64,000 bases of DNA from an uncultured Candidatus Saccharibacteria bacterium. Lineage in GTDB: Bacteria > Patescibacteriota > Minisyncoccia > UBA6257 > 1-14-0-10-44-23. Under the pieces are notes generated by a model. That model was not told where the DNA came from, did no database searches, and worked only from the letters and a program-made list of their open reading frames with translations. The position numbers and the translations under genes are program-made. Where the stretch lies: assembly GCA_964394435.1 (NCBI GenBank), contig CAYMXN010000001.1, positions 235,928-299,927 on the forward strand, read 5' to 3'. Positions 30,615-57,224 of the stretch are shown here, in pieces; the first letter of the stretch is position 1, and each line of letters starts with the position of its first letter.

Positions 30615-30618
30615 ATGC

Positions 30619-34313: not shown

Positions 34314-34318
34314 ATGCG

Positions 34319-34939: not shown

Positions 34940-34940
34940 A

Positions 34941-36534: not shown

Positions 36535-36537
36535 ATC

Positions 36538-37671: not shown

Positions 37672-37674
37672 AGC

Positions 37675-38262: not shown

Positions 38263-38268
38263 ATAGTT

Positions 38269-39117: not shown

Positions 39118-39139
39118 ACGAGTGGGTAATTGTTATTTT

Positions 39140-40711: not shown

Positions 40712-40719
40712 AAATTTAG

Positions 40720-42246
40720 CTATATACTTCTAGGAATTTTTATATACGAACGAATAAGTCGCCAATCGCTTTCTTCAAAGAACCCAAGCACGCGATAGAG
40801 TCCGATAAACACACCACCCGAAAGCCCACCGCAGAGCACGGTCAAAAAAAGAGTTGTCGTTAGTGGAAGTATAAACCATTTCATGAGTACGTAATACATA
40901 ACCCCGGTTATGAGCAACTTCGAAATGAGTTTTGTATGAAACGCAATGCTATCAGTTAAGCCAAAAAATCGGCGCTCACCAAAATACAGCACAAAAGGCA
41001 TTGGCGCTAAACTCGCAAGGTATGCGTATGCGGCACCGGTGATGCCGTACGCTGGTAGCCACCAAGCAAGAAAGACGACGTTTAGCACCAAAAAGAGGAG
41101 CGTGTATTGCGCAAGGTGCTTCACCTTTCCCATGCCGAGCATAAAATGCCCAAATGAGGTAAAAATCCCGAGAATAAAATAAGTTACTGCGAGGATATAT
41201 AGCCCGGTTAGACTCTGCGCGAGGAAATCCTGACCGACCCAGTATTGTAAGATTGGCTTACCAAATGCGATAACAATACTCATAAGCGCAAACCCGATTA
41301 CCGAAACTAAACGCAGCGTTTTACGGTAAATATGTCGTAAGCGCTCATGCTCGCTATTAGCTGAAAGACTCGAAGATACGGGCAAAAAAATACTTGTTAA
41401 ACTTCCGACCGTTCCCTGAATCTTCTGACTAACGGTTCCACTAATATTGTAGTAAGAAACCGCGGCTGGCCCCAAAATCGTACTGATAAGCACTTTATCG
41501 AGCTGAAACAGAAGCGTTGCCGCTGACTCATGCACATACGCATACACATTTAGCTTCAAGTAAGGCAAAAAATATTTCTTTGAATACATAATTCGAATCG
41601 GAATCTCTGGGATAATTTTTCTAAGTGCAAGATAGTAGCTTACAAGCAGTCCGATATTAGTGACTACCTGCATCGCAATGAGACTCAAAACGCCAAATCC
41701 CAAGTCGAGCAATCCAATCATGCCAAGATTAAGCACGATCATGCCGCTTAGATAGATCTTGGTATACACATCGGCTCTATGCGACGCGGTGATCGCGCCC
41801 GTAAAGGCCGAGCACAAACAGCTGAACATAAACCCCAGACCAGCAAGTATAAAGATAATTCTTGCCTGTGCGTGTTCGGCGAGCGGAATCTTGAGTACAT
41901 CAAGACCGTAAAATCCGACCAAGCTTGAGCCTATAAGTCCAATCACGCCAACCCCCAACAGAAGCATGAGCGTCGAACCAATCACTTCTTTTACTCCCTC
42001 ACTCCGCTTATGTCCGTGATATTCCGATACTACCTTTGCGACACCATATGAAAGGCCAAACGTAAGCAGGCTAAAAAACGTAGTAATAACGCTCGCCAAC
42101 ACAAACAATCCATATCGCTCGATGCCAAGCTTATGAATGATGAGTGGAGTTAAGAATATCGTGAAGAAGATTGGAACCACGTACGACAAAAACCCATAAA
42201 ATGAGTTTTTGGCTGTTCGTTTTGAGAGTGACTGAACTGATTCCAT
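40720..42246 (-). CDS. Second oligosaccharide flippase (Wzx/MOP family)
   Basis: 508 aa polytopic membrane protein. Confidence 0.7.
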   Translation of the reverse strand: MESVQSLSKRTAKNSFYGFLSYVVPIFFTIFLTPLIIHKLGIERYGLFVLASVITTFFSLLTFGLSYGVAKVVSEYHGHKRSEGVKEVIGSTLMLLLGVGVIGLIGSSLVGFYGLDVLKIPLAEHAQARIIFILAGLGFMFSCLCSAFTGAITASHRADVYTKIYLSGMIVLNLGMIGLLDLGFGVLSLIAMQVVTNIGLLVSYYLALRKIIPEIPIRIMYSKKYFLPYLKLNVYAYVHESAATLLFQLDKVLISTILGPAAVSYYNISGTVSQKIQGTVGSLTSIFLPVSSSLSANSEHERLRHIYRKTLRLVSVIGFALMSIVIAFGKPILQYWVGQDFLAQSLTGLYILAVTYFILGIFTSFGHFMLGMGKVKHLAQYTLLFLVLNVVFLAWWLPAYGITGAAYAYLASLAPMPFVLYFGERRFFGLTDSIAFHTKLISKLLITGVMYYVLMKWFILPLTTTLFLTVLCGGLSGGVFIGLYRVLGFFEESDWRLIRSYIKIPRSI

Positions 42247-42257
42247 CTCGGCTTTGC

Positions 42258-43172
42258 TTAACTCTTAATAATTCCCTCTTCCTTGAAATATTCAATGAGT
42301 CCCTGCTCAAAACTATATTGCGGCTTCCAGCCAAGGCCAATAATGCGAGTATTATCCATACGGTAGAAGCGATCATGTCCGGCGCGTTTTCCATCGTGAT
42401 AGGTAACTTTTTTCCCAGTTAACTCCTCGGCCTTCTTGATAAGATCAACTACCGTAAATCCATCACGATTGGTTATGTTGTAGGTTCGATCTCCCTTTTG
42501 CATCACTAGATCAATTACCGCGGGGATATTTTTCACATAGAGATATTCACGATATCCTTCTCCGCCGTTTTGTAGTGCGATCGAAAATCCCTCTTTAATA
42601 CTCTTAATTAAGAGCGGCATAATTTTTCGCGTATCCTGACGTGGTCCAAAAATATTACACATACGAATCTCGGTTGTTTTGTCGTGAATCTCTGGAAACG
42701 TATTATCATACGCGTACCGCATTAACGCACCCGCTGCTTTTGAGGCCGAATACGGATTGCGCGGGAAAAGTATCTCGGTTTCATTTTTTGCGTGCTCACA
42801 CTCGCCATACACCTCGTCTGTATTTACATACAATAACTTTTTCAACTTCGGAAGCTGTCGCGCAGCCTCAAACGCATTAAGGTTGCACATATAGTTGTTA
42901 TAAAACACCTCTTCCGGATGACGAATTGAGTGATCGACGTCGGTGATTGCCGCAGCATGAATAATCCAGTCAGGCTGCTCCTCGACAATTAGCTTCCAGG
43001 CAGATGGGCGACTAAAGTCTTCTTTTAAAAGCTTAAATTTACCCGTATGAATCTCTGGATGTGAACCAGTCGAGCAGTTATCAATCACAACTACGTCGTG
43101 ACCTTTTTCGACAAAATATTCAGTAACGTGACTAAAGATAAAACCGAGACCGCCCGTGATGACAATTTTCAT
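42258..43172 (-). CDS. NAD-dependent sugar dehydratase/epimerase (RfbB-like)
   Basis: ITGGLGFIFSH, YSASK (YxxxK) and NIFGPRQ motifs. Confidence 0.8.
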   Translation of the reverse strand: MKIVITGGLGFIFSHVTEYFVEKGHDVVVIDNCSTGSHPEIHTGKFKLLKEDFSRPSAWKLIVEEQPDWIIHAAAITDVDHSIRHPEEVFYNNYMCNLNAFEAARQLPKLKKLLYVNTDEVYGECEHAKNETEILFPRNPYSASKAAGALMRYAYDNTFPEIHDKTTEIRMCNIFGPRQDTRKIMPLLIKSIKEGFSIALQNGGEGYREYLYVKNIPAVIDLVMQKGDRTYNITNRDGFTVVDLIKKAEELTGKKVTYHDGKRAGHDRFYRMDNTRIIGLGWKPQYSFEQGLIEYFKEEGIIKS

Positions 43173-43194
43173 AAATTATGAGTATTAATGGTAA

Positions 43195-43440
43195 TTACCA
43201 ATCCTTCATCGCAACTTTCGCCTTGCGCTTAATTTTTTGATACAAACGTACTGCTTTTTCTTCGACCCGCGGAGAAACGACCCGTAAAATTTCTCGGCCA
43301 AGGATCCGATACTGACCGCCAACCTTATTAGCTTTAATTACGCCTTTCTTAAGAAGACGTTTGATCGTACTCGTACTCACTTTTAGAAGCTCCTTAGTTT
43401 CGTCGCTCGTGTATACGGTATTTGGGTCGATACTGCTCAT
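43195..43440 (-). CDS. Excisionase-family helix-turn-helix DNA-binding protein
   Basis: Trimmed to the ATG at 43440 (the listed ORF starts at a TTG). VYTSDETKELLKVSTSTIKRLLKKGVIKANKVGGQYRI matches the excisionase/MerR-like HTH pattern. TTGACA-N17-TAAAAT ends about 8 nt before the ATG, so the mRNA may be leaderless. Confidence 0.7.
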   Translation of the reverse strand: MSSIDPNTVYTSDETKELLKVSTSTIKRLLKKGVIKANKVGGQYRILGREILRVVSPRVEEKAVRLYQKIKRKAKVAMKDW

Positions 43441-43500
43441 ATCGCCTATTTTAGACGAAGTGTCAAAAGGTGTCAAAAAGGTTCATGGGGATAATCGGTA

Positions 43501-43539
43501 ATAAAAAGAGCGGACGATGTATCTCTACATTGTCCGCTC
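43501..43539 (-). terminator. Strong intrinsic terminator after the Nudix-like gene
   Basis: gagcggac...gtccgctc long stem followed by tttttatt on the minus strand. A second hairpin lies at 43543-43566. Confidence 0.75.
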
Positions 43540-43570
43540 ATCGCCCGCCTGTTGGCGGACGGGTGCGAAA

Positions 43571-44263
43571 CTAGTGACCGAAGCGGTAACCGTAACCCTG
43601 TGCACGCGCCCGATGGGCCGCCAACATCACCTCTACAAACGTGTGGCTCATGTCGTACGACCACTCTCCCTCGATCGGGAGCGTATCGAGAGAGTACCAC
43701 TCGAGGCCACTCGCCTCGGCCTGGTTGTCTCCGCTCTTCACCCCGAACACGACCTGCTGGTCGTGCGTACCCGCGTACGTCACGATGTGGGTCGAGGCGT
43801 AGCTGTGCTTGCCCGGGTCGTGGGAGAATCCGTTGCGATTACGACCGTCCATCTGAGGCGCGTACTGGCGCATACAGACCGGATGGGCCCAACCGAGCGG
43901 CAGCTCGACGTCGATGCCGAGATCGCTCTTGTAGTGGAACTTCAAGGCGTCCTCGATGGACTGGTAAAGTCCGACCACGCCGCCGACGATGGCGAGCTTG
44001 CCAGGAAAGCGCCCCGTCCGACGACGGATGACACCGCCGAGCAACTGACCCGTCTTCGGGTCCTGCTTGACGATGACGCCGTCGACACAGGGCACGGCAC
44101 CGAGCTTCGTACGCAAGGGCCAGACCGCTCCCGAGACCCGCCCGTCCGGCTGGACGAGCTGATCGAGATCCGAACGCTGGGCGAGGATCTCGGCGAGTTG
44201 CCGAGTGCTGTAGCCCACCAGCCGATCCGCAAGGTCGGCAGTCGAATCAGTCCTTTCGGACAT
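43571..44263 (-). CDS. GC-rich Nudix-fold, DUF4916-like protein (degenerate Nudix box)
   Basis: Trimmed to MSERTDSTADL (GGAGG SD 6 nt upstream). AVPCVDGVIV...GKLAIVGGVVGLYQSIEDALKFHYKSDLGI follows the Nudix strand-loop-helix layout without the full GX5EX7REUXEEXGU box. 42/60 G+C at 43981-44040. Confidence 0.65.
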   Translation of the reverse strand: MSERTDSTADLADRLVGYSTRQLAEILAQRSDLDQLVQPDGRVSGAVWPLRTKLGAVPCVDGVIVKQDPKTGQLLGGVIRRRTGRFPGKLAIVGGVVGLYQSIEDALKFHYKSDLGIDVELPLGWAHPVCMRQYAPQMDGRNRNGFSHDPGKHSYASTHIVTYAGTHDQQVVFGVKSGDNQAEASGLEWYSLDTLPIEGEWSYDMSHTFVEVMLAAHRARAQGYGYRFGH

Positions 44264-44314
44264 CGGAAACCTCCGGGAAATACCCTCCGCAACCGATTGT
44301 TGTGGATTAGATAT

Positions 44315-44343
44315 GTTATAGCATAAAATATGCCCAAAGTCAA
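44315..44343 (-). promoter_or_regulatory. Promoter TTGACT-N17-TGcTATAAC with GCATA-TTT-TATGC palindrome in the spacer
   Basis: Minus strand reads gaTTGACTttggGCATAtttTATGCTATAACatat. Confidence 0.65.
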
Positions 44344-44396
44344 TCACCTGCTGTTGCGCCCACAAATCAAAAGCCCGCCAGCTGGCGGACTTTTGA

Positions 44397-46631
44397 TTAC
44401 TTCGTGCTTACTCCCAAGGCTTCAAAGACTGGCATAAATTGAGCGGCGTTCGGATTGCCTAGGAAGAAGTCTGGGACGTGAGCTAAGAACTGCCGTAGGT
44501 ATGTAGCTGCTTCAGCATTTTGGCCAGTAAAAGCCAGTACGACACCGAGCTTGAGCTCGGACTCGTAATCAGCTTCGTTGTACTTGAGTGCGAGACGATA
44601 TAACCTCGCCGCTTCTTCATAATTCTCTGCGTCACCATAATACCCGGCAACAATACGAGCCTCTGGTGCAGTGTTTGGGTTGCGCCCCCTGCTCTTTGCT
44701 AGTTCGATCTCTTCAAATCCTTTTTTCTGATCGCCAACTTCAAATGAAAGCAACCCATAGAAAAAGTGCGGGTCAGCAGCTACCGGATCAAGGTCGATAG
44801 CGTTTTGCATTTCTTTGAGCGCCGCTTTTTTATCTCCCTGGAGCAAGCGAAGCTTTGAGAGCATATAATACGTCTGCTGACGATTGGATGAGATACTTAT
44901 CGCCTTACGAATATTTTCCTCGATCAACTTGAAATACTTTTTATCGAGGTTTTGAAAAATCATTCCGGCATCGGCGCGTACAATGTACAGATAGTAGTTA
45001 TTCGGATCAGCCTGGATAGCCTTATCAAACTGCGCGAGTGCGTAGTCAACAACTGCTATCGTATTTGAAATTTCCTGCTGCTGCACCATCTGCGACAACG
45101 CACTTACCATGCTCTGACTGATCTCGTGCTGATATGGCTCGTTGAGTGCGATTCCTTTTTTATACGACTCGATCGCCTTATCTGGCATTCGATTTACGAA
45201 ATAGTTCAGCCCCCAGAACTGGAGGTGGTTTGCATATACAATTCTACTATTCACTACTACTCCGATGAGCAACCCGGCAACCACTACGCCTACTACGCAG
45301 CCGCCAAAGACCTTCTTTGTTGTAGTAAACGAACCTACCTCGCTGGTTGCACGATGCCGATCTGGAACATACTGGTCGACAAGCGCAATAAACACAATGA
45401 GCATCAAGTACGAGCCAAACGCATCAAAGACGAAAAAGTTTTGAGCGAGATAAGCGACTAGGGCGCCGAGTGCGAATGGGCGGAGCTCCAGAGGCGCGAA
45501 GCGAATAATCGTTCGGATAAGCAAGCCAATAAGTAGTACGTAGGCGAGAAAACCGACTACGCCACTTGTCGCTAAAATCTCAAGATATACGTTGTGCGGC
45601 TTATCCCAGTACGTTTCAGCAAAGCCAGTACGAAGCAAAACTGGGTTATAACGCTGATCAAATGGGTATTTAAAGTTTTCCCAACCATATCCCAGTAGTG
45701 GCTTTGTTTTAATAATATCGATTGCGGTTTTCCAGGCGATTAAACGGTTACCGACGGTCGCATCAAAACTTGAGATTTGAGCTAAGCGATTGAGCCCTGG
45801 GACCTTTTGCCATACAGCTGCGCTGCGGGTAGCAAAAAATACTCCACCAAAAATTATCATCGCGACAATACCGAGTAGCGGGATGTTTTTTACTATTGAT
45901 GTGCGCACTGTAAATGGCTTGAGCTTACGAAGAGCAACATACCCAAGCGTACTCATTGCGCCCAATGTCAAACCAACCAAAGCACCACGCGTCTGTCCGA
46001 GTAAGATAACAACGGCTAGGGTTGCGATGCCAAACCATAGCCAAACTCTTACCCCTTTTCGCTGGGTCGTACGAGCAAGCCAAGCTCCAATAAACATATT
46101 AAACATAAGATATGGAGCTAAAAATGCTGGGTTGCCCATAAAACTACCTGGGCGTTGAGCATCACTCCCCTCAAACACCGTTGGTGCGATTTTTTGGATG
46201 ATCGCAAAAAAGCCAACGATAAAGGCTAAGCCAAATAGATAGCTCATAAATGAGCGCCAGTTAATACGGCGACGCATCGCGACTAATACCAAGAAGTATG
46301 CGTAAAAGTGTAGGAGTGAGAAAATACCAATCGCGCGCTCTTGAATTGACCAAAAACTTCGATGCAAATTAACTCCCGTCAAACTAGCGAGCGCGAGCAT
46401 CCCCAAAAATAAACCTAGGGCGAGTACTAACTTACTTGCCCGAGGACGGTACTCTTTGCGAAATACTGCGAGCCCAATCCAAGCAGCTACTGTTAGCTCA
46501 ACTAAAATATGAAAGCCAAATACCTTTAAGGTTACGAGTGGATAAATGAGGTTATTAATATAGAGCAAAATGGCGAGCGGGCAGATATACAATCCCCAGC
46601 GCACGATTTTCGATAATACGTCTGTGTTCAT
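44397..46631 (-). CDS. O-antigen ligase (Wzy_C)-like polytopic membrane protein with C-terminal TPR repeats
   Basis: 744 aa: about 12 TM helices in the first ~450 aa, then repeated TPR-like helices (AIESYKKGIALNEP..., AIQADPNNYY..., ALKEMQNAIDLDP...). Confidence 0.75.
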   Translation of the reverse strand: MNTDVLSKIVRWGLYICPLAILLYINNLIYPLVTLKVFGFHILVELTVAAWIGLAVFRKEYRPRASKLVLALGLFLGMLALASLTGVNLHRSFWSIQERAIGIFSLLHFYAYFLVLVAMRRRINWRSFMSYLFGLAFIVGFFAIIQKIAPTVFEGSDAQRPGSFMGNPAFLAPYLMFNMFIGAWLARTTQRKGVRVWLWFGIATLAVVILLGQTRGALVGLTLGAMSTLGYVALRKLKPFTVRTSIVKNIPLLGIVAMIIFGGVFFATRSAAVWQKVPGLNRLAQISSFDATVGNRLIAWKTAIDIIKTKPLLGYGWENFKYPFDQRYNPVLLRTGFAETYWDKPHNVYLEILATSGVVGFLAYVLLIGLLIRTIIRFAPLELRPFALGALVAYLAQNFFVFDAFGSYLMLIVFIALVDQYVPDRHRATSEVGSFTTTKKVFGGCVVGVVVAGLLIGVVVNSRIVYANHLQFWGLNYFVNRMPDKAIESYKKGIALNEPYQHEISQSMVSALSQMVQQQEISNTIAVVDYALAQFDKAIQADPNNYYLYIVRADAGMIFQNLDKKYFKLIEENIRKAISISSNRQQTYYMLSKLRLLQGDKKAALKEMQNAIDLDPVAADPHFFYGLLSFEVGDQKKGFEEIELAKSRGRNPNTAPEARIVAGYYGDAENYEEAARLYRLALKYNEADYESELKLGVVLAFTGQNAEAATYLRQFLAHVPDFFLGNPNAAQFMPVFEALGVSTK

Positions 46632-46764
46632 ATAGCTTTGATACTACCAAGTTTGCTCCCCTTTTTCCACCAAAGCAAACGCCCCCTTGCGGGGGCGTTT
46701 GCCGGTTTACTCCACTACACAAATTGCTTTATGTAGTTCGAGCTATCCCATGCTGACGTTACTA

Positions 46765-49700
46765 CTATTCGTAGCTGACGTTGGCGATGGTGAACGGAAC
46801 AACCGTTGACTCGATCGAGATGTTGCTCGTCGTGCCATCGTTGAACGTGATACCCGAGGCAGCGTTGATAAGCGCTGAGAGGGAGTCAGAGGTGTTGGAA
46901 CCGTTGTAGAAGCTTGAGGAGTTCACACGAACCTTAGCAGCCTTCGTGGTGCCTGGGTCAACTGTGTATGACGGGTTAAACGTCACAGAACAGGAGTTAC
47001 CAGCACCTGGAGTGCAAGTCTGTTGAGCTGCACTGCCGAGAGCTGAGTTGGTGTTGGCGTCAAGAAGGTCAACCGTGAAAGCGGTCGAACCGTTGCTGAC
47101 AGCCTGACCAGAGAACTTGACCGTTACAGTACCAACTACAGCCTGGTAGGCCGAGTCAGCCGTAAAGTTCAAGGTTGCAAGGTCGTCAACCGCTACACGA
47201 GTACGGCCAGTGGATGAACCAAGGACCGCGCTTGAGAGCGAGAGCTTCGTGCGGTAAACCGTGACAGTGTTACCTGAAGCAGAACCAGACTTCGTAGCAG
47301 ACGTGTTCGAGTCCTTACCATACGCCGTAACGAAGTACGTCGGCTGGGAGAGACCGAATGCGTGGGTGCTGTTTGAAGTGGCACCACCAGAGCTGTACGT
47401 CGCAACATCACCCTTTACCACGAGGTTAACCGTACCGTTTTTCGGAACGATAACTGGGTTGAGGCTGAAGGTCGCCGTAGCAACTGAACTGCCAGACATC
47501 GTCATCGAGATAGGACCAGCTACCTGAGTAGAGCCGTTCCAGAGCGTTACGTTCTGGAATGAAGCGATACCAGCTGAACCGTTACCTACCGTGTCGGTGA
47601 GCGAGATGTCGGTTACGCGGATGTCCTCAACGTTGTCCGCGGTAAGGCGGATCGTTAAGAGGGCGTTGCCGGTTGAACCCATTACTACGTACTTAGAAGG
47701 CGCCGTGTCGGAGCCAGTAGCGACCGTAAGGGTTGGACCAGACGAGATTACGATACTCTGACCGTTAACTGCACCTGGGAAGGTAATCGCCGAGTTCGAG
47801 ATCGAACCCAAAGCGCTCCAACCGATGATGTCGATAACTGCAGAGTGAGTCGCAGCCGTCGAGCTGGTCAAGATGTCGGCGTAAACGTCAATCGTTACTG
47901 AACCACCCTGTGGAACAGTGACTGGGGTCGCAGCGCTGAACGCGAGCGAGGTTTCCGCATCACTGATCGTTGGGCGGGTCGTTCCGAACTGAGTCGAACC
48001 GATCATAACCTTCATGTTCTGCATGTCGAAGTTCGCGTTGCTGTCCTTGTCAAAGGTAAGCGACGAAAGGGTCGCACCCTGGGCTGAAGAAGCAGTTACG
48101 ATGAACGAAGCGACACGAGCGTTGTTGCTACCAGCGATAAACGTTGGTGAGTTAAACGCTGAGTTTACAGCAACCGTGAGCGGAGTCGTCGTAACAGCGA
48201 GCGTCGCGCCGGTTACAGAACCGGATGAAGCTGACTGGAACGAGGTCTGACCCTCAAGGTTTGTGCTGTTACCTGGCAAGCTGCCCTGGAGCGTCGTGAC
48301 GTCAGCACCCGAGAGGATGTCAACGACGAGCGAGACTACACGGACAGTGTTGGCCGGAACAATGTAGTTAATTGGGGATCCGGACGTACCGAAGTGGCAA
48401 GTAATCGAGCCGGAAGCGAGCGTACACTGACCGGAGGAAGAACCACCAGCAACAGTGTTGATCGCGTTACCAACCTGACCACCTACGTCATCGATAAGGC
48501 GGATGTTTTGGATGTCGTCCGTCGGAGCAGTAGCCCAGTTAGTACCGGAACCAACCTGCGAGATGGTCGCATCTAAGAACTTAACTTTAACTGCCTCACC
48601 AGCTGCATAAATGCGAGCGCGGAGAAGAGTTACGCCAGAGGCACCTACTGGAATTGGAGCAGTTGGGGTGTCTGAAGCGAGAGATACCGTGATCGAACCG
48701 GTGTTGATCGTAATCGTTGTCTGGTTCGTTGAGGTGATGGAGACCGTGATACCAGTGTTGTACTGGGTGTCGATCGCCGTGACCTTAAACGGCTGGAGCA
48801 ATGAGAACGTCAAAGTGCGGTTAGGGCTGCCGTTGATGTCAGCGAAAAGCTGAATCGTCGAGTTACCCGTGTTGAGCACGATACCCTCTGGGAAGTTGAA
48901 GTTGGTGTTCGTCGCGCCAGCTGCGAGAGTCGCAACCTGCGTGCCGTTAACCAAAAGCCTCAAATTCTGAACATCGCCTGGGTTAGCTGAACCGACCATG
49001 CTGAACTGCATGTTGGTGAGCTTGACCTTGCTGTTAGAAACGTTCGCAGTCCAAGATGAAACGAGGACCGAGGCCGTACCAGCATCAACTGTTGAACCTA
49101 CCGCGTTAGCAGTAAGAGTCATCGTTGAAAGTGATGGGTTGGAAACTGAAGTGACAGTCAAGGAAGCGGTGGAAACTGGAAGACCAGTAACCGTCGCACC
49201 CGTCGCCGTTACACCCTTAAGCTGCCAAGCGAGCGTGTTGCCAGCTGAAGCAGATGAAGAGAGGTCAAGGCGGAGCTCACCAGTCCAAGTCTGACCAGCT
49301 GGGATCATCAAGTTGAGACCCGAGAAGGTTGCGACTGAGTTGGTGAGTGACTGGAACTGAGCAACAACTTCACCGGTCGCCGCGTTGGCGAGGTAAAGGT
49401 TGTTGATGTTGCTGTCAGATACGACACCAACCTTGTTGAATGTAAGGCCAGTAACCGTTACTGCAGCGCCAGCTGGAGCGGTGAAAGCGAAGCGGCCAGC
49501 GTTGATCTGACCAGCTCCGGCGATTGCCGAGCCAATTGGGTTGTTACCAGCGAGGGTAACGTTAAGAGTGGAACCGGCTGGGAGTGAAACGCCCGTGCCA
49601 GTACCAGTGCCAGTGTTCACAGAGCCAGTGAAGGCTGCGCGAGACTTTGCACCGAAGTAACCAGAAGCTGGGGTGATGCCAGCAGAAGTCTGCCAGGCCA

Positions 49701-50034
49701 TAACCGCCGCCTTGGTGATGCTACCGAAGTAGCCCGTTGGGGAAACACTGAAGTGACCCTTTGACGCAAGAACCTGCTGGAGGCAAGTAACATCAGCGCC
49801 CTTTGAGCCCACGGTGAGGTCGCGGGTGAAGGAACATGCTGAGTTGCCGCCAGTCGAGTTGTTGAGCTGGGACTGCAGGTTAGCCAACGTTGCGAGCAAC
49901 GCGTTGATCTGAGTCTGGATGTCTGAAGCTGATTGCGCACCGGCAACCGCTACAAATGAACCAAAACCAGAGAGCGTAGCCGCAGTGGTTACCGTCAGGA
50001 TTACTGAGGCAACCTTGTTGCTAAATTTACTCAT
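46765..50034 (-). CDS. Large cell-surface protein: signal/anchor, PG_binding_1-like domain, long Thr/Ser/Ala/Gly/Val-rich beta-repeat region
   Basis: 1089 aa. LTVGSKGADVTCLQQVLASKGHFSVSPTGYFGSITKAAVMAWQ is a peptidoglycan-binding repeat, followed by a TGTGTGTG linker and repetitive T/S-rich segments. Confidence 0.8.
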   Translation of the reverse strand: MSKFSNKVASVILTVTTAATLSGFGSFVAVAGAQSASDIQTQINALLATLANLQSQLNNSTGGNSACSFTRDLTVGSKGADVTCLQQVLASKGHFSVSPTGYFGSITKAAVMAWQTSAGITPASGYFGAKSRAAFTGSVNTGTGTGTGVSLPAGSTLNVTLAGNNPIGSAIAGAGQINAGRFAFTAPAGAAVTVTGLTFNKVGVVSDSNINNLYLANAATGEVVAQFQSLTNSVATFSGLNLMIPAGQTWTGELRLDLSSSASAGNTLAWQLKGVTATGATVTGLPVSTASLTVTSVSNPSLSTMTLTANAVGSTVDAGTASVLVSSWTANVSNSKVKLTNMQFSMVGSANPGDVQNLRLLVNGTQVATLAAGATNTNFNFPEGIVLNTGNSTIQLFADINGSPNRTLTFSLLQPFKVTAIDTQYNTGITVSITSTNQTTITINTGSITVSLASDTPTAPIPVGASGVTLLRARIYAAGEAVKVKFLDATISQVGSGTNWATAPTDDIQNIRLIDDVGGQVGNAINTVAGGSSSGQCTLASGSITCHFGTSGSPINYIVPANTVRVVSLVVDILSGADVTTLQGSLPGNSTNLEGQTSFQSASSGSVTGATLAVTTTPLTVAVNSAFNSPTFIAGSNNARVASFIVTASSAQGATLSSLTFDKDSNANFDMQNMKVMIGSTQFGTTRPTISDAETSLAFSAATPVTVPQGGSVTIDVYADILTSSTAATHSAVIDIIGWSALGSISNSAITFPGAVNGQSIVISSGPTLTVATGSDTAPSKYVVMGSTGNALLTIRLTADNVEDIRVTDISLTDTVGNGSAGIASFQNVTLWNGSTQVAGPISMTMSGSSVATATFSLNPVIVPKNGTVNLVVKGDVATYSSGGATSNSTHAFGLSQPTYFVTAYGKDSNTSATKSGSASGNTVTVYRTKLSLSSAVLGSSTGRTRVAVDDLATLNFTADSAYQAVVGTVTVKFSGQAVSNGSTAFTVDLLDANTNSALGSAAQQTCTPGAGNSCSVTFNPSYTVDPGTTKAAKVRVNSSSFYNGSNTSDSLSALINAASGITFNDGTTSNISIESTVVPFTIANVSYE

Positions 50035-50570
50035 TGATTTGTTTTTCGTAGAAACTTAGTTAAATTCTTTGTAATTAATGTGTGGTTGTTCCGGGAAATC
50101 ACCCCCTCTTTTGGCTCCTTCGCTTACCCGCCACACGTGACGGATAAAAGGATCGACCGCTACAAAAGCTTAAGGATGACTTTAGTAACTTTGTTGAGCT
50201 CTCTTACTTTCTTTTACTCCCGATAAAAGAAAAGAGCTTCGCACAAATGCGAAGCTCTTTTCTAGATTGGAAGTAATACGCTAAACGCAACTAAAATAAA
50301 CCCGCGGCTTGGCGCACAGACCTTTTATATAGAAAGCCTACATAAAAGCACGGCCAAACCGGTTGCGTATACCGTATTACCCCCACTAGACCAAGCCTCA
50401 CACTCGGGCTAATGAACGTACTTACCTAACAGAAACAGTATATCAAATAACGGAGAAATTAGCAATACATGTGGATAAATCCGTCAAGAAGGCGAAGTTA
50501 ACCTCATACACTGCTCATAAGGTATAACGAGCAGGAATCAAATCTATTACACCCCTCCCCCTGGGCAAAA

Positions 50571-51239
50571 CTAGACCCCTCCTAGGGCGTAAAAATTGGA
50601 TGGACCGCCATTACCCTGACGCGTCAATTTGCCGGTTTCACAAAGGTACTTAAGGTCGTAACGGATAGTTCGCTCGCTCACACCCGGCAGCCCGGCAATA
50701 ATGTCTTTGAGTTGCAACTTTCGCTCTGCCGACTTCTGAATCATTGCCACGATCGCTAGCTGCCGATTAAGCGCTGACTGACTCGCCTCGCCTGTACTCA
50801 CCTGAACATCTGGCTTACTTATGATTGCCGGAATGCGCTGTTCTGATTGCCTGATTGGACTCGCCGCCTGCCTGATTGCCATTAACTCACGGGTTGGGCT
50901 TTTCTCAAGCGGCTTTGCCGAAAAGATGGATTCGATACTACCCGATGGTAAGACCATTTCCAACTTCTGAATCTCGCCCGCAAGAAGCTCAAGTTCGCGC
51001 GTGATAATCTTGGCGTTGACCGGCTCGATCTCGTAAACACTTTTGCCGAGCGAGACTAGTGAGTCGATCGCCTCAATCGTACCAAGGGTGAGCTCGGTGT
51101 TTTTATACGAAACATTCTCCAGCAAGTGGTACGCGAGCACCTCAAGACGGCGGCGGAGTTCAAATCGACGAACGTATGCGGCAAGACGAAGTACTGCGTA
51201 GGAGATTTCTCTGGATTTTTGCCTAATGAATTGATTCAT
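50571..51239 (-). CDS. Putative winged-helix (DeoR/HTH_11-like) transcriptional regulator
   Basis: C-terminal LQLKDIIAGLPGVSERTIRYDLKYLCETGKLTRQG HTH. Start set at MNQFIRQK; could be 51281. Confidence 0.5.
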   Translation of the reverse strand: MNQFIRQKSREISYAVLRLAAYVRRFELRRRLEVLAYHLLENVSYKNTELTLGTIEAIDSLVSLGKSVYEIEPVNAKIITRELELLAGEIQKLEMVLPSGSIESIFSAKPLEKSPTRELMAIRQAASPIRQSEQRIPAIISKPDVQVSTGEASQSALNRQLAIVAMIQKSAERKLQLKDIIAGLPGVSERTIRYDLKYLCETGKLTRQGNGGPSNFYALGGV

Positions 51240-51282
51240 ACTGTTGCCGATATCATATGCCAGATAGTCTAGGCAAGTCAAA

Positions 51283-51316
51283 CAAAAAAACAGGCAACGA
51301 TGTTGCCTGTTTTTTG
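51283..51316. terminator. Bidirectional terminator after alaS
   Basis: aaaaaaa-caggcaac-gat-gttgcctg-tttttt. Confidence 0.8.
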
Positions 51317-53104
51317 TTATTCGACTGTCGCCCTAATGCGCCTGATTCCAGCTCCGACCGCCTCCTCTTTGACTATCTTGAACTTGCCGATTACCGCTGT
51401 GTGGTCCACGTGCGGTCCACCGCAAAACTCCTTACTAAATGATTCCGGAATCGTGTGTCCGACGTAGTACACTTTTACTTTTGCCGGATACTTTTGCTTA
51501 AAGAAGTATAACGCCCCAGTCTTTTCCGCATCCTCCTTTGCCATCTCGACAAATCCTACCGGCAAATCTTTAGCTACAACCCCATTTACGATATCCTCCA
51601 CCTTCTTAATCTCCTCCGGAGTGAGCTTGCGCGGAAATGAGAAGTCAAAACGCATACGCTCCGCAGTAATGTCACTACCCGCCTGATGCACCTCCTGGCC
51701 GAGCACCATACGCAGCGCCTGTTGAGTTAAGTGTGTGGCGGTGTGTAATCGTGTTACCTTTTTCAGCTCTTCTTCATTAGCAGCTTTGAGCTCACCGGTG
51801 TCTAATAACAACCCGTGACCGCCAAACTTCTTTTCCGCTCCGGCGCGAGATATCTCTTGGTGCTTTTTAAACTCCTTTTCGAAATCAGCAACGCTTACTC
51901 CTTTGAGCACCTCTGGTGCCATCTCTTTCATGAGTTCAAAGTTAAGCCCGAAAGTTGAGTTGATTAAAAACGCCTCTTCCACACTCAACGTCTGGTGCTT
52001 CTTAAGCTCCTTAAGCCCATTAGCAACTACTTTTTCAAACTTTTCTTGCTCCTCTAAAAGCACTGTCATAATCTCCGGCTTAGTTATTTCCGGATAAGTA
52101 GTGCTAAATTTTTCTACTACTACTGGAACAAGTTGCTCAAACAACCCGCCATGGATGTCATATCGGACTTTGTAGGCAAGGATACGGCGAATGAGACGGC
52201 GCAAGATATATCCCGCCTCTTTGTTGGCTGGGCGGACACCGTCAGCAATCAAAAAGATACTAGCGCGCATATGATCAGCGATTACCTTCTTCTCTTTTTC
52301 AGGAAGCTGTGGCGCGAGCTGACTAATTGCCGAAAGAATGCCTGTGAATAAGTCGGTCTGGTAGATGTTTTCTACGCCCTGTAAGACGGTTGTTAAGCGC
52401 TCAAACCCCGCTCCAGTATCAATACCCGGAAATGGCAACGGCTTAAGCTCACCCTTGCCGGCGATAAGCGACTCTTTGGAAACATTTGAGTAGTACTGAT
52501 TAAATACCACGTTCCATACCTCAACCCCCTTGCCTTGTTTTGCCAGATCTTCGGTCGGTGCGACATAGATCTCGGTTGTTGGTCCGCACGGCCCCTCGTT
52601 GCCAGTTGGCCCCCAGAAGTTATCCTCCATACCAAAGCGACGAATCCGCTCTGCCGGAATACCAATCTCTTTGTGCCAGATATCATAGGACTCGGCATCA
52701 AATGGTACTGCCACATTACCCGTAAACACCGTGACGTACATCCTTGCCGGATTTATACCAAGCTCTTCGGTCAGTAAGCGATACGCGAAATGAATAGCCT
52801 CTTTTTTAAAATAGCCACCAAACGAGAAGTTGCCGAGCATCTCAAAAAACGTCAGGTGGGTGTTATCCCCAACCTCCTCAATATCTCCGGTACGGAAACA
52901 CTTCTGAATTGAAGCGGTACTCTTTGCACCAAAGTCAGTTTGCGCATCAAGCTCGCCAGTATAGTACTTTTTAAACTGCTGCATACCGGCAGTGGTTAAG
53001 AGTACTGACGGGTCAGACGGGACGAGCGATGACGAAGCAATAGTCGCGTGACCGTTACGCTTGAAAAACTCGAGGAATTTTTTGCGAATTTGTTCTGAAG
53101 TCAT
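51317..53104 (-). CDS. alaS: Alanine--tRNA ligase, short form lacking the C-Ala domain
   Basis: 595 aa with a canonical N-terminus (MTSEQIRKKFLEFFKRNGH), editing-domain HTATHL and CGGPHV motifs, and an end at ...GIRRIRATVE. Confidence 0.9.
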   Translation of the reverse strand: MTSEQIRKKFLEFFKRNGHATIASSSLVPSDPSVLLTTAGMQQFKKYYTGELDAQTDFGAKSTASIQKCFRTGDIEEVGDNTHLTFFEMLGNFSFGGYFKKEAIHFAYRLLTEELGINPARMYVTVFTGNVAVPFDAESYDIWHKEIGIPAERIRRFGMEDNFWGPTGNEGPCGPTTEIYVAPTEDLAKQGKGVEVWNVVFNQYYSNVSKESLIAGKGELKPLPFPGIDTGAGFERLTTVLQGVENIYQTDLFTGILSAISQLAPQLPEKEKKVIADHMRASIFLIADGVRPANKEAGYILRRLIRRILAYKVRYDIHGGLFEQLVPVVVEKFSTTYPEITKPEIMTVLLEEQEKFEKVVANGLKELKKHQTLSVEEAFLINSTFGLNFELMKEMAPEVLKGVSVADFEKEFKKHQEISRAGAEKKFGGHGLLLDTGELKAANEEELKKVTRLHTATHLTQQALRMVLGQEVHQAGSDITAERMRFDFSFPRKLTPEEIKKVEDIVNGVVAKDLPVGFVEMAKEDAEKTGALYFFKQKYPAKVKVYYVGHTIPESFSKEFCGGPHVDHTAVIGKFKIVKEEAVGAGIRRIRATVE

Positions 53105-53201
53105 AGGTGAAATATGTATTATGTACTGTACCTTTTTTGCGGTCCGAAATCAAAGCGCCCCCGCTTTTAGGCGGGGGCGCTTGTTGACCTTATGTATTAG
53201 T

Positions 53202-54557
53202 CTAGTTTACAAGCAGTCCAGCGATAAAAGCGAGACGAATTTTGAGGTTACGGATATTTGCCCCTGCGGCCGAAAGATCTTTGCCGGCTGAAATACGCGC
53301 AGTAAGATCAGCGATTTTAGTCTTCATATCAGCGAGTAGTGCCTGAGCGGTCTCAACATTCTCGGTTAATACACCGCTCGCAGTAGCTAACTGGCCAACT
53401 AGGTCGTATTGCGTGCGGAGCTTGTCGAGCTCGGCCTCAAGGTCGAAATCGGAAAGCTGTACGCGTGCACTACTTGCGGCAGCGTAAGCGAGCTTGGCTT
53501 GCAAATAGGCGTTTTGAAAAGCCCCTTCGGATAAGAGCGCTTGCGCCTGCTCGTTGTTAAAGTTCGCACGAATAAGCATCGCTGAAAGCGCAGGAATTGA
53601 GTTCGCGCTCGTTGCGGTTGCGGTATAGATCTGAATAACACGTGCCGACGCCTTAATAGCCGCGTCAGCTGCGTCTTGGGTAAACAATCCCTTTTCTTCA
53701 GCAGACTTAATCACCTTTGAACGAACGACATTGAGCTGACTCTTAAGTTCAGAATCGACTAAGCGTTCGGCGATTTCCGCAAATGATGCGAGGCGGCCAA
53801 CCCCATCTCCAGAAAGCGAAGCGAGGTCATCCAATGTCGCACTTTTCCCAAGCGAGTGTTGAGCCTCTAAGACGCCGGCAAATTGTACGTATAAGTCATC
53901 AGCTCCGCGGCGCAACTCGATTAACGACTCGTCGTTTTTAACAATGCGCGACAGCACTTCGGCTAAGCGCAATGACTGATACTCGGTCTCACCACCAAGT
54001 GCGAGTTGCTCGGCTTTCTGACGCAACCCCTTTTCGGTTTCAAACGACTTGAGTGAAGCGGTGGCTAGGTCAACTAAGGCTTGATTAAGATTGGTCGCGG
54101 CCGTACGAATCGCCGGAGTCGCCGGATTAGTCAAAATATCATCGGCAAACTGGAGATGAACTAAGATACGCTCGGCGAATAAATCGACAAAGCCCGGCTC
54201 GATTTCCGAAGCTTTGGCGCGGTTAATGCGAGCCAGTAGTGTAGTTGCCGCTTTTTGGTACTGCGTTAAGCCACCGAGCATCAAACTCTCATTGTCAGGC
54301 GCGATACGCAATGATTTACCAACCTCGGCCGCTTTGTCATCAAGCGCACTTAACGCGGTCGTGAGCTTTGTACCCGAGAAAAAACGCTCAAATCCAACCT
54401 TAAATGCGTAAAATGGGTTGTTTGGTAAAATAGCCGGATCGCTACTGCTTAACTCGGCTAGTGAGACGGCGCCGATGATCGAAGACTGAATAGCAAAAGC
54501 CGGTACGGTCAAGGCGAGTGAGAACAAACTAATTGCGGCAACAATAAATCGTTTCAT
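53202..54557 (-). CDS. Secreted helical protein, DUF5667-like
   Basis: Signal peptide, ILPNNPFYAFK motif near the N-terminus, long alpha-helical repeats. Confidence 0.55.
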   Translation of the reverse strand: MKRFIVAAISLFSLALTVPAFAIQSSIIGAVSLAELSSSDPAILPNNPFYAFKVGFERFFSGTKLTTALSALDDKAAEVGKSLRIAPDNESLMLGGLTQYQKAATTLLARINRAKASEIEPGFVDLFAERILVHLQFADDILTNPATPAIRTAATNLNQALVDLATASLKSFETEKGLRQKAEQLALGGETEYQSLRLAEVLSRIVKNDESLIELRRGADDLYVQFAGVLEAQHSLGKSATLDDLASLSGDGVGRLASFAEIAERLVDSELKSQLNVVRSKVIKSAEEKGLFTQDAADAAIKASARVIQIYTATATSANSIPALSAMLIRANFNNEQAQALLSEGAFQNAYLQAKLAYAAASSARVQLSDFDLEAELDKLRTQYDLVGQLATASGVLTENVETAQALLADMKTKIADLTARISAGKDLSAAGANIRNLKIRLAFIAGLLVN

Positions 54558-54574
54558 ACGTTTGAATAGGAATA

Positions 54575-55804
54575 TTAGTACCCTTCGAGCATCGTCGACT
54601 TAAGGTGACCACGGATACGGAGCAAGGCTTTCGCCTCGATCTGACGAATACGCTCACGCGTAACACCAAACTCCTTACCTACCTCTTCAAGGGTGTGTGT
54701 AACTCCATCCTCCAACCCAAAACGCATCTGTAAAATCTTTTGCTCGCGCGGCGTTAAATCAATCAAAATTTCACGAATTTTTTCACGCAAGAGCGCCTGG
54801 CTGGCAACTTGAGCCGGCGTCAAACTCTTATCATCTTTAATAAACTCGGAAAGCGTCGAGTCATCGTCTGAATCACCAACTGGCGACTCGAGGCTGACCA
54901 CGTCCTGACTAATTTTCTGGATGTAGTGAATCTTATCGATTGGCATATCCATCTCACCGGCGATCTCTTCAACGAGTGGGTCGCGGCCAAGCTCTTGAGT
55001 TAATCGGCGCTTAACCTGCGTGTATTTACTGATTGTTTCCACCATGTGTACTGGAATACGAATCGTACGGCTCTGGTCGGCCAGTGCGCGGGTAATAGCC
55101 TGACGAATCCACCAGGTGGCGTAGGTTGAGAACTTAAAACCACGGCGATAATCAAACTTATCAACAGCGCGCGAGAGACCCATATTACCCTCCTGAATCA
55201 AGTCGAGAATCGAGAGGTTGGAGCTGCGGTTTACGTAGCGCTTAGCGATAGAAACGACTAAACGCAAGTTGGCGCTAATAAACTTTTGACGAGCAACTTC
55301 GTCGCCCTTTTCGATACGCTTAGCGAGCTCTTTCTCTTCAAATGACTTTAAAAGCGACGCCTTACCAATTTCTTTGAGATACATCTGTACCGAGTCCGGG
55401 AGGTTGTCCTCGTAATTAATCTCGGTAGCACGCTGGAGCTCTTTCTCGGTAATCTCCTCTTTGTCGCGCGGAACATCAATTAACTGACTCGTTTCAATAA
55501 CTTTAATACTCGACTCGTCGAGCTTGCGATAGATTTCGTCTAAAAAGGTCACATCTTCCTCAATGCGCGGGAAGTAGTGAAGCACCTCGGTATCAGTAAC
55601 ATAACCACGGTCCTTGCCGCGATCGATAAGATCGCCTAACTGTTGGAGGTTAATTTCTTCTCGCTTTTTAGCTTTTGCAGTCTTAGCTGATGCCGCCTTA
55701 CGGGCACTCTTTTTCAGAACAGTCTTTTTCGGCTTGGCGGACTTAGAACGTTTTGCAGCTTGAGCAGATTTTGCTTTTACCGCTTTCTTTTTTGGCATAG
55801 TCAA
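54575..55804 (-). CDS. rpoD: RNA polymerase sigma factor RpoD with Lys/Ala-rich N-terminal extension
   Basis: Region 2-4 motifs: [59 protein letters not shown]. Confidence 0.95.
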
Positions 55805-55933
55805 ACCAGTATTAATTATAACCCAGATTTCCCTGACAAAAAAATAAGACTATCAATGTGCCAATCCCTATCACTTTTCTCGTATAATGACGCTTCAAAC
55901 GCCTTTATATTGACACAAATAGCCTACTGTTGA

Positions 55934-55961
55934 AGTATATGGTATTTTTGCGATTTGTCAA
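55934..55961 (-). promoter_or_regulatory. Putative rpoD promoter TTGACA-N16-TATACT
   Basis: Read on the minus strand about 125 nt upstream of the rpoD start. Confidence 0.5.
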
Positions 55962-56142
55962 TGTAGCCGCCTGCCTACCTAATAAGAGTAAATGACCACT
56001 AACTCAATGCTCCAGGCTATCTGAAATGCTGAGTTAGTTGCAGGAGAAGAGGTTTGAATTCTTCTCCTGCGATGCTTGAGGCGAACTCGTACGTTCGCCT
56101 CGACCTGTTGCGCGGGGTACGACCCGCTGTCTCGAGTCTCGC

Positions 56143-56976
56143 CTACGAGGCGAGACCCTTCTTCACCGCGGCGAGGACCACCTCGCCGTCGATTCCGCTG
56201 GCACCCCAGTAGGCGGGCTGTCCCGCCTTGCCGAGGCCTGCGCCACCCGACCAGCCACCCAAGTGCTCCTTCAAGCTGGCACAGAGCGCGCCGTCCCCGT
56301 AGAAGTTCACCTCCCCGTCCTTCGAGAGGATGAGGAGCTGGTCGACGGCCCCGTAGAGGCGGTCAGCGACCGCTGAGGTCTTCGAGTGGTCCATGCGGAC
56401 CACCGTCAGACGTCCGTCCACCTCCTTCGCGCCGATGGCGCGGAGGGCCTCTGTCTCGTGCGCGGGGGTCACCCCCTGCGCCGCACGGTCTAGCGCACGA
56501 ATGCGCTCGACCTCGGCGTCAGATGCCCCGAGCGCCCGCATCGCAGGGACGTACCCCGCGTCGTTGGCACCTACGAGCTCGATCCAGCGACGAGTCTGCT
56601 CGCTGGTCGGCATCTTAATCAGTGCCAAAACCTGCTGCACCGCCGGGGGACGGTGCGACTGGTCGCCGTGATGGTCGACGACCACCACCTCAGTCTGCTC
56701 CGGCCACTCCTTGGTCGGCGAGCACTCGACGAAGATGACGCATTCGATGCCGGCACACCGCGTCGACTTACGGTTGTGCTGCCAGAAGTCTGGTCCGGTC
56801 TGGACCAGGATCTCCTCGACCGTGAGGCCAAGGTCGCCTGCGGCGGCGTAGACATGCGACCCCCAGCCCTTGTTGGGCTGGACCCACTTCTCACCCGCGA
56901 GGGTGAGGAGAGAGCGAACGACCTCCATTTCGAGGTCGTTCCCGCCGAGTACGAACAAACGGTTGGCCTTACCCAT
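56143..56976 (-). CDS. GC-rich DHH-family-like phosphoesterase (divergent motifs)
   Basis: Trimmed to MGKANRLFVLGGNDLEME (GGAG SD). Motif spacing fits DHH proteins: NDLE at residues ~13-16 (DxD-like), VECS at ~83-86, VVVVDHHGD at 97-105, C-terminal GGWSGGAG (GGGH-like). 45/60 G+C at 56461-56520. Confidence 0.6.
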   Translation of the reverse strand: MGKANRLFVLGGNDLEMEVVRSLLTLAGEKWVQPNKGWGSHVYAAAGDLGLTVEEILVQTGPDFWQHNRKSTRCAGIECVIFVECSPTKEWPEQTEVVVVDHHGDQSHRPPAVQQVLALIKMPTSEQTRRWIELVGANDAGYVPAMRALGASDAEVERIRALDRAAQGVTPAHETEALRAIGAKEVDGRLTVVRMDHSKTSAVADRLYGAVDQLLILSKDGEVNFYGDGALCASLKEHLGGWSGGAGLGKAGQPAYWGASGIDGEVVLAAVKKGLAS

Positions 56977-57174
56977 CGAAATCTCCAGTTGGTCCGGAAG
57001 GACCGTGAATCCACTTCGGGCGTTTCCGCTCAGGTAGGACGACACCTCTGGATAAGCACTTTATTTTACAACCCGGCTTGGAAGGTTGTCCGCTCTGCGA
57101 GCAGCGTTTTAGGCGCAAATACGCTCAAAACACTGCTCACGAACGGTCTATTTCAATGAACGACTTAGATATTT

Positions 57175-57203
57175 AATATAGCATATTTTTATGCTTTTGT
57201 CAA
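57175..57203 (-). promoter_or_regulatory. Promoter TTGACA-N17-TGcTATATT with GCATA-AAAA-TATGC palindrome in the spacer
   Basis: Minus strand reads gaTTGACAaaaGCATAaaaaTATGCTATATTaaat. Leaves a leader of about 190 nt before the DHH-like ATG. Confidence 0.65.
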
Positions 57204-57224
57204 TCTATCTCTTTTTGTTCCTTC

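Follow-up and report, generated by a model that had tools for sequence, protein, structure and literature searches.

Extreme GC3 and excess mRNA folding behind the strongest predicted promoters of a Candidatus Saccharibacteria genome region

We analyzed a 64,000-nucleotide stretch of DNA from an uncultured Candidatus Saccharibacteria bacterium (GTDB lineage Bacteria; Patescibacteriota; Minisyncoccia; UBA6257; 1-14-0-10-44-23; GenBank assembly GCA_964394435.1, contig CAYMXN010000001.1, positions 235,928 to 299,927 of the forward strand), hereafter called the window. Within this window, the strongest sigma-70-type promoter form appears to drive only four stand-alone transcription units, all of which are GC-rich and highly folded. 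Three of them are predicted mRNAs, encoding a Nudix-fold protein (gene A, 43571-44263(-)), an NrN-family DHH phosphodiesterase (gene B, 56143-56976(-)), and a lineage-restricted orphan (gene C, 7750-8691(+)), and one looks non-coding. What the units would have in common is a design at the RNA level and not a regulator, namely a 5' stem-loop or leader, a coding sequence with an extreme GC content at third codon positions (GC3) that pairs beyond codon needs, and 3' hairpins. With moderate confidence, we attribute this to selection on the RNA itself, favoring mRNAs that are very stable, long-lived, highly folded, and of high output, rather than to a shared regulon; translation of B would additionally be gated by its leader. 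An earlier note on this DNA had proposed instead that A and B form a dispersed, co-regulated module. L numbers (L006, L217, and others) denote comparison loci that were fetched.

The four best promoter matches precede GC-rich units

The four promoters in question are the following:

7606-7634 (+): promoter of gene C; perfect TTGACA, 17-bp spacer, TATAAT, TATGC extended -10
19799-19826 (+): fourth promoter of the same type; TTGACA, 16-bp spacer, TATACT, TATGC
44309-44343 (-): promoter of gene A; TTGACT, 17-bp spacer, TATAAC, TATGC extended -10; GCATA-TTT-TATGC in the spacer
57171-57205 (-): promoter of gene B; TTGACA, 17-bp spacer, TATATT, TATGC extended -10; GCATA-AAAA-TATGC in the spacer

The promoter sequences that had been described upstream of A and B were found exactly as reported, at 44343-44309(-) and 57205-57171(-). 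We counted four copies of the 9-mer TATGCTATA in the window (at 7624+, 19816+, 44317-, and 57177-), with 0.26 expected, and none of 100 shuffles reached four. When both strands of the 64 kb were scanned for TTGACA-N16-18-TATAAT with an optional TG, the top four sigma-70-type matches were the four TATGCTATA sites. As these sites are the best promoter matches in the window, TATGCTATA is best read as a TRTGn extended -10 together with the first part of the -10 hexamer, and thus as the predicted generic form of the strongest promoters and not as a private signature. Promoter A is the weakest of the four, and it is missing from the list of a stricter scan because its -10, TATAAC, lacks the conserved final T. 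The next-ranked matches belong to the rpoD candidate (55961), to a small helix-turn-helix (HTH) gene (43476), and to position 24917, and all three are devoid of the TG. The absence of the TG/TATGC element from the rpoD candidate promoter, which had been noticed before, was thus confirmed, and the same holds for the HTH gene promoter.

Similar promoters of the [AG]TGCTATA type (gTATGCTATAct, aTATGCTATAat, and cgTGCTATCAT) precede B homologs and also other genes in unrelated genomes of the candidate phyla radiation (CPR). The occurrence of the motif in front of unrelated genes in these genomes speaks against its being the mark of one co-regulated module.

The suggestion that GC-rich elements follow all four TATGCTATA promoters proved correct, and within the window this link is exclusive. 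The genome has a GC content of 46%, and when all open reading frames (ORFs) of the window with 90 codons or more are considered, a GC3 above 0.7 is reached only by C (0.97), B (0.83), and A (0.76), with all others ranging from 0.39 to 0.62, including groEL with 0.55. No ORFs other than these three follow TATGCTATA promoters, and A, B, and C are also shifted in GC1 and in amino-acid composition. Hairpins end all three genes. The parts of the four units are as follows:

7639-7749 (+): 5' leader of C; starts with a stem-loop with the core GGGA..TCCC, which is present in all three orthologs
7750-8691 (+): gene C; 313 amino acids, lineage-restricted orphan with weak OB/S1 resemblance; GC 0.70, GC3 0.97
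8700-8760 (+): predicted terminator hairpins and T-run after C
19832-20065 (+): GC-rich, strongly folded element of 234 nucleotides, non-coding-looking, between the promoter at 19799 and a terminator
43500-43539 (-): terminator-like hairpin with 14-bp arms and T-run after A
43571-44263 (-): gene A; 230 amino acids, DUF4916-family Nudix-fold protein with a degenerate Nudix box; GC 0.61-0.65, GC3 about 0.76
44264-44308 (-): short 5' untranslated region of A; GGAGG ribosome-binding site 6 nucleotides before the ATG
56040-56142 (-): 3' untranslated region of B; several stem-loops, the last being an 11-bp perfect hairpin without a T-run
56143-56976 (-): gene B; 277 amino acids, NrN-family DHH phosphodiesterase between dnaG and rpoD; GC 0.66, GC3 0.83
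56977-57166 (-): structured 5' leader of B; about 190 nucleotides with a long conserved hairpin; ribosome-binding site and AUG paired in predicted closing helices

The coding regions fold better than their synonymous shuffles

To compare folding energies at constant protein sequence and codon usage, synonymous codons were shuffled among their positions. The native coding sequences folded better than these shuffles, with z values of -4.7 for C, -4.5 for B, and -3.4 for A, at an average of about 0 for 16 ordinary genes of the window (range -2.1 to +1.8). A stricter shuffle that also kept the flanking-base context gave -4.0 for C, -3.1 for B, and -2.4 for A. The element at 19832-20065 reached -5.7. 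Excess folding was also found with the C orthologs (-3.1 and -2.8), with the B ortholog (-5.5), and with B homologs from other CPR bacteria (-4.0 and -10). The strongest cases were the B homolog at L219 and its unannotated GC-rich neighbor (z -9.1), which fold 9-10 standard deviations beyond their synonymous shuffles. High GC alone does not produce the effect, as B homologs of high-GC Proteobacteria and Acidobacteria, whose GC3 is 0.86-0.94, gave values of only -0.6 to +0.6. A two-sequence RNAalifold count of 18 compensatory pairs in coding sequence is biased by construction and was not relied on.

These data bear on a neutral explanation, according to which a local GC-biased process would keep the genes GC-rich without any function at the RNA level. 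This could be gene conversion with a GC bias or, at extremely transcribed units, a mutation bias from AT to GC that is associated with transcription. Such a process could account for the GC content, but it would not predict native folding 2.4 to 10 standard deviations beyond shuffles of identical composition, and equally GC-rich homologs elsewhere have no such excess. Moreover, the AT-rich promoters and AT-rich parts of the leaders in the same transcription units have remained AT-rich, and groEL, which is presumably highly transcribed, is unaffected. Several aspects do fit a neutral process: the effect is tied to the strongest promoters, GC is raised at all codon positions, the log-odds offset is roughly constant over genomes of different base composition, and specific base pairs are not conserved. 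On balance, we regard a neutral origin as rather unlikely.

The GC-richness is maintained in divergent orthologs

The C family has three members among 5.8e9 proteins, the window protein and two orthologs (L015 and L016; 57% and 46% amino-acid identity), and a search of 1.84e9 representative proteins gave no other relative that was convincing. The C orthologs adjoin the same M23 peptidase gene, are preceded by TTGACA-N17-TATGCTATAAT, and have a GC3 of 0.95-0.97 in comparison to flanks with 48-49% GC. The M23 peptidase gene beside C (81% identity) is of ordinary composition. At four-fold degenerate sites under conserved residues, 33-42% of the positions differ between the orthologs, and 69-79% of these differences are exchanges between C and G. 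The synonymous sites of C have therefore turned over while they were held to G or C, and the third positions of all three orthologs contain only 0-1% A and 2-4% T.

The B ortholog at L006 (64-67% identity) has the same position between dnaG and rpoD and a GC3 of 0.87. Its four-fold sites differ by 39% from those of B, in comparison to 58% for rpoD and 80% for dnaG, and the two genes share identical runs of up to about 30 nucleotides, synonymous sites included. More generally, the GC3 of the B homolog was above the median of its neighbors in 17 of 17 CPR loci, with a median difference of +0.19 versus +0.02 in 37 non-CPR loci (Mann-Whitney p=1e-6), a comparison that is based on mechanical ORF calls, on taxonomy from record titles, and on loci that are not phylogenetically independent. 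These patterns indicate that the GC-richness is maintained and not recently imported.

It could be argued that the genes were recently acquired from a high-GC donor (host, phage, or plasmid) and have not yet ameliorated, with promoters that were captured or co-transferred. The shifts in GC1 and amino-acid composition besides GC3 would agree with this, as would the self-contained organization of each gene as a cassette with its own promoter and terminator, and one B homolog indeed lies in a GC-rich island of unknown genes. However, a recent arrival is difficult to reconcile with orthologs at 46-67% identity that occupy the same chromosomal positions with the same extreme GC3, and with a synonymous turnover that is mostly between C and G. 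C has no homologs in any high-GC organism, the nearest relatives of B are CPR proteins and not proteins of high-GC phyla, a search of the IMG/VR viral contigs yielded no relatives of B, and the excess folding is not seen in true high-GC homologs. Recent transfer is therefore very improbable. Two specific sources were considered and rejected, namely a high-GC host such as Actinobacteria, against which the ortholog and codon evidence speaks, and a phage origin of B, for which IMG/VR gave no relatives; PHROGs searches were blank for A, B, and C.

Ordinary translational selection, in which G/C-ending codons would be optimal and A, B, and C would be the most highly translated genes, has hardly any chance of being the explanation. 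C and G are interchangeable at four-fold sites, which argues that any strong base is preferred and not a particular codon, GC1 is shifted as well, and groEL and groES remain far below the outliers. Also, the B leader is predicted to occlude translation initiation, which would be odd for a gene that is optimized for maximal translation. In favor of such selection, putative highly expressed genes have a slightly raised GC3 (0.55-0.62), and A, B, and C all have strong promoters and good ribosome-binding sites as far as these can be predicted from sequence.

A conserved leader may gate the translation of B

The leader of B folds with a z value of -6.5, and its ribosome-binding site (CUGGAG) and AUG are paired in the predicted fold. 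The comparison with the leader of the L006 ortholog showed about 80% nucleotide identity, 56 pairs, and 6 compensatory changes, as judged from these two sequences only, and this conservation stands while neighboring synonymous sites are near saturation. A covariance model made from two sequences matched directly upstream of a distant B homolog (L035, 36% protein identity) with E values of about 1e-4 to 3e-6, and the core hairpin is recognizable at this position also at the sequence level. There was no Rfam match to the B leader. A degenerate hairpin pattern produced at least 120 chance matches in a metagenome collection, and among the matches listed, there was neither a fit to the covariance model nor a coding sequence for A, B, or C. 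We consider the leader a candidate cis-regulator that would gate the translation of B by pairing its ribosome-binding site and start codon and that may function as a switch.

Where the conserved N-terminal motif GGxDxEM of B is encoded, the coding sequence itself forms a perfect 10-bp hairpin (GAACGACCTC/GAGGTCGTTC; 56916-56941(-)).

B belongs to the NrN family of DHH phosphodiesterases

B had been recognized as DHH-like, and we can now assign it to the NrN family of DHH phosphodiesterases. The solved NrN structure (PDB 9lq9) was matched with E=3.4e-19 by the single sequence and with E=4.2e-51 by a profile of the 32-member family (positions 4-215), and there were PADLOC matches to DHH_CorA (4.6e-31) and C3a116 (7.6e-47). 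B contains the sequence VVVDHHGD, in which D101, H102, and H103 are invariant across the 32 family members and align with the DHH of 9lq9. In NrN of Bacteroides fragilis, mutation of the corresponding triad D85/H86/H87 abolishes function, and the enzyme is specific for the degradation of SAM-AMP, which serves as the signal in CorA-type type III CRISPR systems (PMC10600005). As this characterized family member degrades SAM-AMP, the signal-degrading role that had been envisaged for both A and B is a legitimate lead in the case of B only. The window itself lacks CorA, cas genes, and a CRISPR repeat array, and B is surrounded by dnaG, rpoD, alaS, and others. By analogy to its family, the most likely substrate of B would be very short RNA or a small nucleotide conjugate with a 5'-3' linkage. 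Standing alone at the conserved dnaG-rpoD position and equipped with a candidate cis-regulatory leader, this NrN-family phosphodiesterase would widen the role of the family beyond accessory CRISPR loci.

The surroundings of some B homologs are noteworthy in their own right. At L217 (1-7309), the homolog belongs to a series of same-strand genes that is GC-rich throughout and in which every gene is set off by an intergenic gap. Among the proteins encoded in this series are one with a Csx3 domain, one of the AAA-Csx3 type, and one for which a precomputed Pfam match names 'Gad2'; the series may be an island of nucleotide-signal-related genes. One B homolog is fused to a domain that Pfam calls Gad2. 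At L219 (563-3250), the B homolog (GC3 0.89) and an unannotated 372-amino-acid neighbor (GC3 0.87) adjoin pilM/pilN genes of ordinary GC content. In Candidatus Staskawiczbacteria (L008/L017), whose genome is labelled with 42% GC, 13 same-strand genes including a B homolog occupy a 13-kb stretch with a GC content of about 54%. These genes have no Pfam or PADLOC match and are separated by gaps of 60-560 nucleotides, most of them 200-500 nucleotides. For the neighboring unknown genes in these GC-rich islands (L008/L017, L217, and L219), searches with Pfam, PADLOC, and PDB sequences were blank except for the Csx3-type genes at L217. Directly downstream of rpoD in the window, there is a 451-amino-acid ORF (53202-54557(-)) that has no Pfam match and that is retained at this position in the related contigs L006 and L007, with a length of 303-307 amino acids there.

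A is a Nudix-fold protein in a polysaccharide gene cluster

The assignment of A as Nudix-like is supported by family matches to DUF4916 and NUDIX and by an AlphaFold2 model whose top listed matches are all Nudix structures. Among 15 relatives of A, several of which are from Microgenomates, 13 matched DUF4916 and 8 matched NUDIX (Pfam, best E 1.4e-4); the window protein itself matches neither of the two Pfam models. The AlphaFold2 model of A (predicted local distance difference test score, pLDDT, 82) gave 372 Foldseek matches in the PDB at E<=0.001, and the top 50 listed were all Nudix proteins.

With regard to the Nudix box (GX5EX7REUXEEXGU with its catalytic Glu), the A family deviates and has the consensus G-x5-E-x7-R-H-W-x-T-D-x-G-L, in which RHWxTD replaces REUxEE. 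The window copy deviates further, with exchanges of the first Glu to Gln and of the Arg to Phe. As these box residues are lost in the window copy, hydrolase activity may be absent from A.

A is located within a long same-strand cluster of polysaccharide and nucleotide-sugar genes (about 29500-46600(-)), which includes an epimerase, a flippase, a methyl/glycosyltransferase, and a Wzy_C-TPR protein, and an A homolog at L014 resides in a comparable cluster. As A is part of a polysaccharide gene cluster, its substrate would most likely be a nucleotide-sugar or a similar compound. This conserved context does not agree with the signalling role that had been considered for A.

Gene C and the element at 19832-20065

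The AlphaFold2 model of C (pLDDT 70) contains two beta-barrel regions with long helices between them and a basic tail, and its weak Foldseek matches are nearly all OB/S1-type nucleic-acid-binding folds. The 19832-20065 element does not contain a plausible ORF, Rfam gave no match to it even at E<=10, and it is a candidate for a non-coding RNA. That A, B, and C themselves are large non-coding RNAs was also considered and is ruled out by their clear codon periodicity, their protein homologs, and the lack of Rfam matches.

The palindrome of promoters A and B and the question of an operator

The earlier note had interpreted GCATA-N3/4-TATGC as the operator of a dimeric regulator, possibly the product of the adjoining HTH gene, with A and B as a dispersed, co-regulated, signal-degrading module. 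The repeat is real: it occurs exactly twice in the window, at promoters A and B, with 0.17 occurrences expected, and only 1 of 100 shuffles reached two. If the promoters are independent, a chance occurrence of the left arm at two of the four TATGC promoters was estimated at p of about 1e-4 to 1e-5. The operator model could also refer to the GATTGAC and ATATCTAA blocks that promoters A and B have in common, to the signal-degrading enzyme in the family of B, and to the B homolog in an island with Csx3-type genes.

However, the right arm TATGC is the extended -10 that is common to all four promoters, and only the left arm GCATA needs to be explained; GCATA is not known to be part of any promoter element. 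The half-sites are separated by 3 bp at A and by 4 bp at B, and such a 1-bp difference would be unusual for a single dimeric regulator. The left arm is absent from promoter C and from the promoter at 19799, and a search with one mismatch in the 64-kb window revealed no additional promoter-associated copies and no enrichment. In the syntenic B ortholog at L006, which is the one ortholog available for this comparison, the spacer is TACATAAAATGTGC. In the original register, the left arm thus reads TACAT, with all five positions changed, and just a 4-bp AT-rich palindrome in a shifted register is retained. As the right arm belongs to the extended -10, the spacing is unequal, and the left arm is not kept in the B ortholog, a putative operator is unsupported.

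The HTH gene that had been nominated as the regulator is described by the following entry:

43195-43440 (-): excisionase-type (HTH_17) HTH gene; 81 amino acids from the ATG at 43440; own promoter at 43448-43476

Nothing ties this gene to the palindrome, and it is absent beside A homologs elsewhere. Its own promoter has a different repeat, with two copies of the direct repeat TTTTGACAC in the -35 region, which may be its own control site. The HTH gene appears to be nearly leaderless, with a -10 that ends about 8 nucleotides before the ATG at 43440. Homologs of A and B did not occur together in any of the loci examined, and the context of A is that of polysaccharide synthesis. Taken together, we consider the operator model quite improbable.

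Discussion

Selection on the RNA itself fits the data best because it accounts for the maintained GC3, the interchange of C and G, the excess folding, and the terminal stem-loops. The property under selection would be the stability of the mRNA.

Some observations weigh against this explanation or narrow it. Base pairs predicted in the coding sequences by single-sequence folds are kept in orthologs no more than random canonical pairs, which means that any selected structure would have to be an overall foldedness and not a defined architecture, or that minimum-free-energy predictions for 800-1000 nucleotides are too inaccurate. The A homologs in three other genomes are mildly GC-elevated or not elevated at all, and the property is therefore lineage-specific in the case of A. 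Ordinary highly expressed genes, such as groEL, groES, and ORFs of ribosomal-protein size, are not GC3 outliers, and high expression alone does therefore not explain the effect. Promoters A and B share blocks beyond the consensus (GATTGAC, GCATA, and ATATCTAA after the -10), behind which a shared ancestry or a shared factor is possible. Finally, 'strong promoter' and 'stable mRNA' are predictions from the sequence, and the placement of the organism in the CPR was derived here from the taxonomy of homologs.

A more far-reaching version of RNA-level selection would be that CPR bacteria keep a small class of 'armoured' mRNAs, which are monocistronic, transcribed from the strongest promoters, and protected by extreme GC3 and excess pairing over the entire coding sequence, with a leader that would mask the translation start in at least one case, the NrN-like gene. 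Such mRNAs could be made in bulk, stored in a nuclease-resistant and translationally silent form, and unmasked when needed, for example upon host contact or in response to the supply of nucleotides. Another function of the armour could be to protect them against RNA-targeting nucleases or immunity. This idea is speculative and, in our judgement, unlikely. If it were true, an ultra-small, nucleotide-auxotrophic cell would gain proteins without new transcription, and an NrN-like phosphodiesterase, a Nudix-fold protein, and a possible S1/OB RNA binder would make up a toolkit for RNA and nucleotide turnover.

Our literature searches returned nothing relevant, either on DUF4916 or on classes of GC-rich or highly expressed genes in bacteria of this kind. 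If confirmed, the genes described here would rank among the clearest natural examples of selection that acts on the folding of whole mRNAs in a gene-specific way. The signature of a strongest promoter, a GC3 outlier, and excess folding could then be used to find such genes in uncultured ultra-small bacteria, in which most such genes lack annotation.

Comparison with known systems

Extended -10 promoters of the sigma-70/SigA type, with a 'TRTGn' or -16 region, were reportedly described in Gram-positive bacteria by Voskuil and Chambliss. They have the same TTGACA, the same 16-17 bp spacer, and the same TATGnTATAAT as the promoters analyzed here. Differences are that the free position is a C in four of four cases and that the form serves only GC-rich units in the window.

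Stem-loops at the 5' end of the ompA type stabilize mRNA, and riboswitches and translational operators sequester ribosome-binding sites. The C and B transcripts would have the same kind of 5'-proximal stem-loop, and the B leader is predicted to pair the ribosome-binding site and the AUG. In contrast to such known leaders, no Rfam family was matched here, and the apparent stabilizing design extends through the whole coding region.

Some Nudix hydrolases that are encoded in polysaccharide clusters have an altered Nudix box, an example being GDP-mannose mannosyl hydrolase. A resembles this type in its Nudix fold, in its nucleotide-sugar and polysaccharide gene setting (in the window and at L014), and in its modified signature. 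It differs in that it does not match this enzyme at the sequence level, belongs to the DUF4916 family, and has lost the box Glu and Arg in the window copy.

B agrees with the NrN of the CorA-type type III CRISPR system of Bacteroides fragilis (PDB 9lq9) in the profile match, the invariant DHH triad, and the PADLOC matches. Unlike CRISPR-associated NrN, it stands alone between dnaG and rpoD, with its own predicted strong promoter and a long structured leader, in a window without CorA, cas genes, or a repeat array.

In bacteria, it is usually a genome-wide mutation bias together with weak codon selection that shapes synonymous sites. Selection that acts genome-wide on local mRNA structure or toward a higher synonymous GC content has reportedly been found by Katz and Burge in 2003 and by Raghavan and colleagues in 2012. 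The constraint on synonymous sites is of the same kind here, acting by G/C preference and folding and not by particular codons. In contrast to genome-wide selection, however, it is extreme in the window, with a GC3 of up to 0.97 in a 46% GC genome, it concerns few genes of one promoter class, and it is kept across divergent orthologs. Selection on synonymous GC and on the folding of mRNAs is thus known as such, and what would be unusual in this gene class is the strength of the selection and its gene-specificity.

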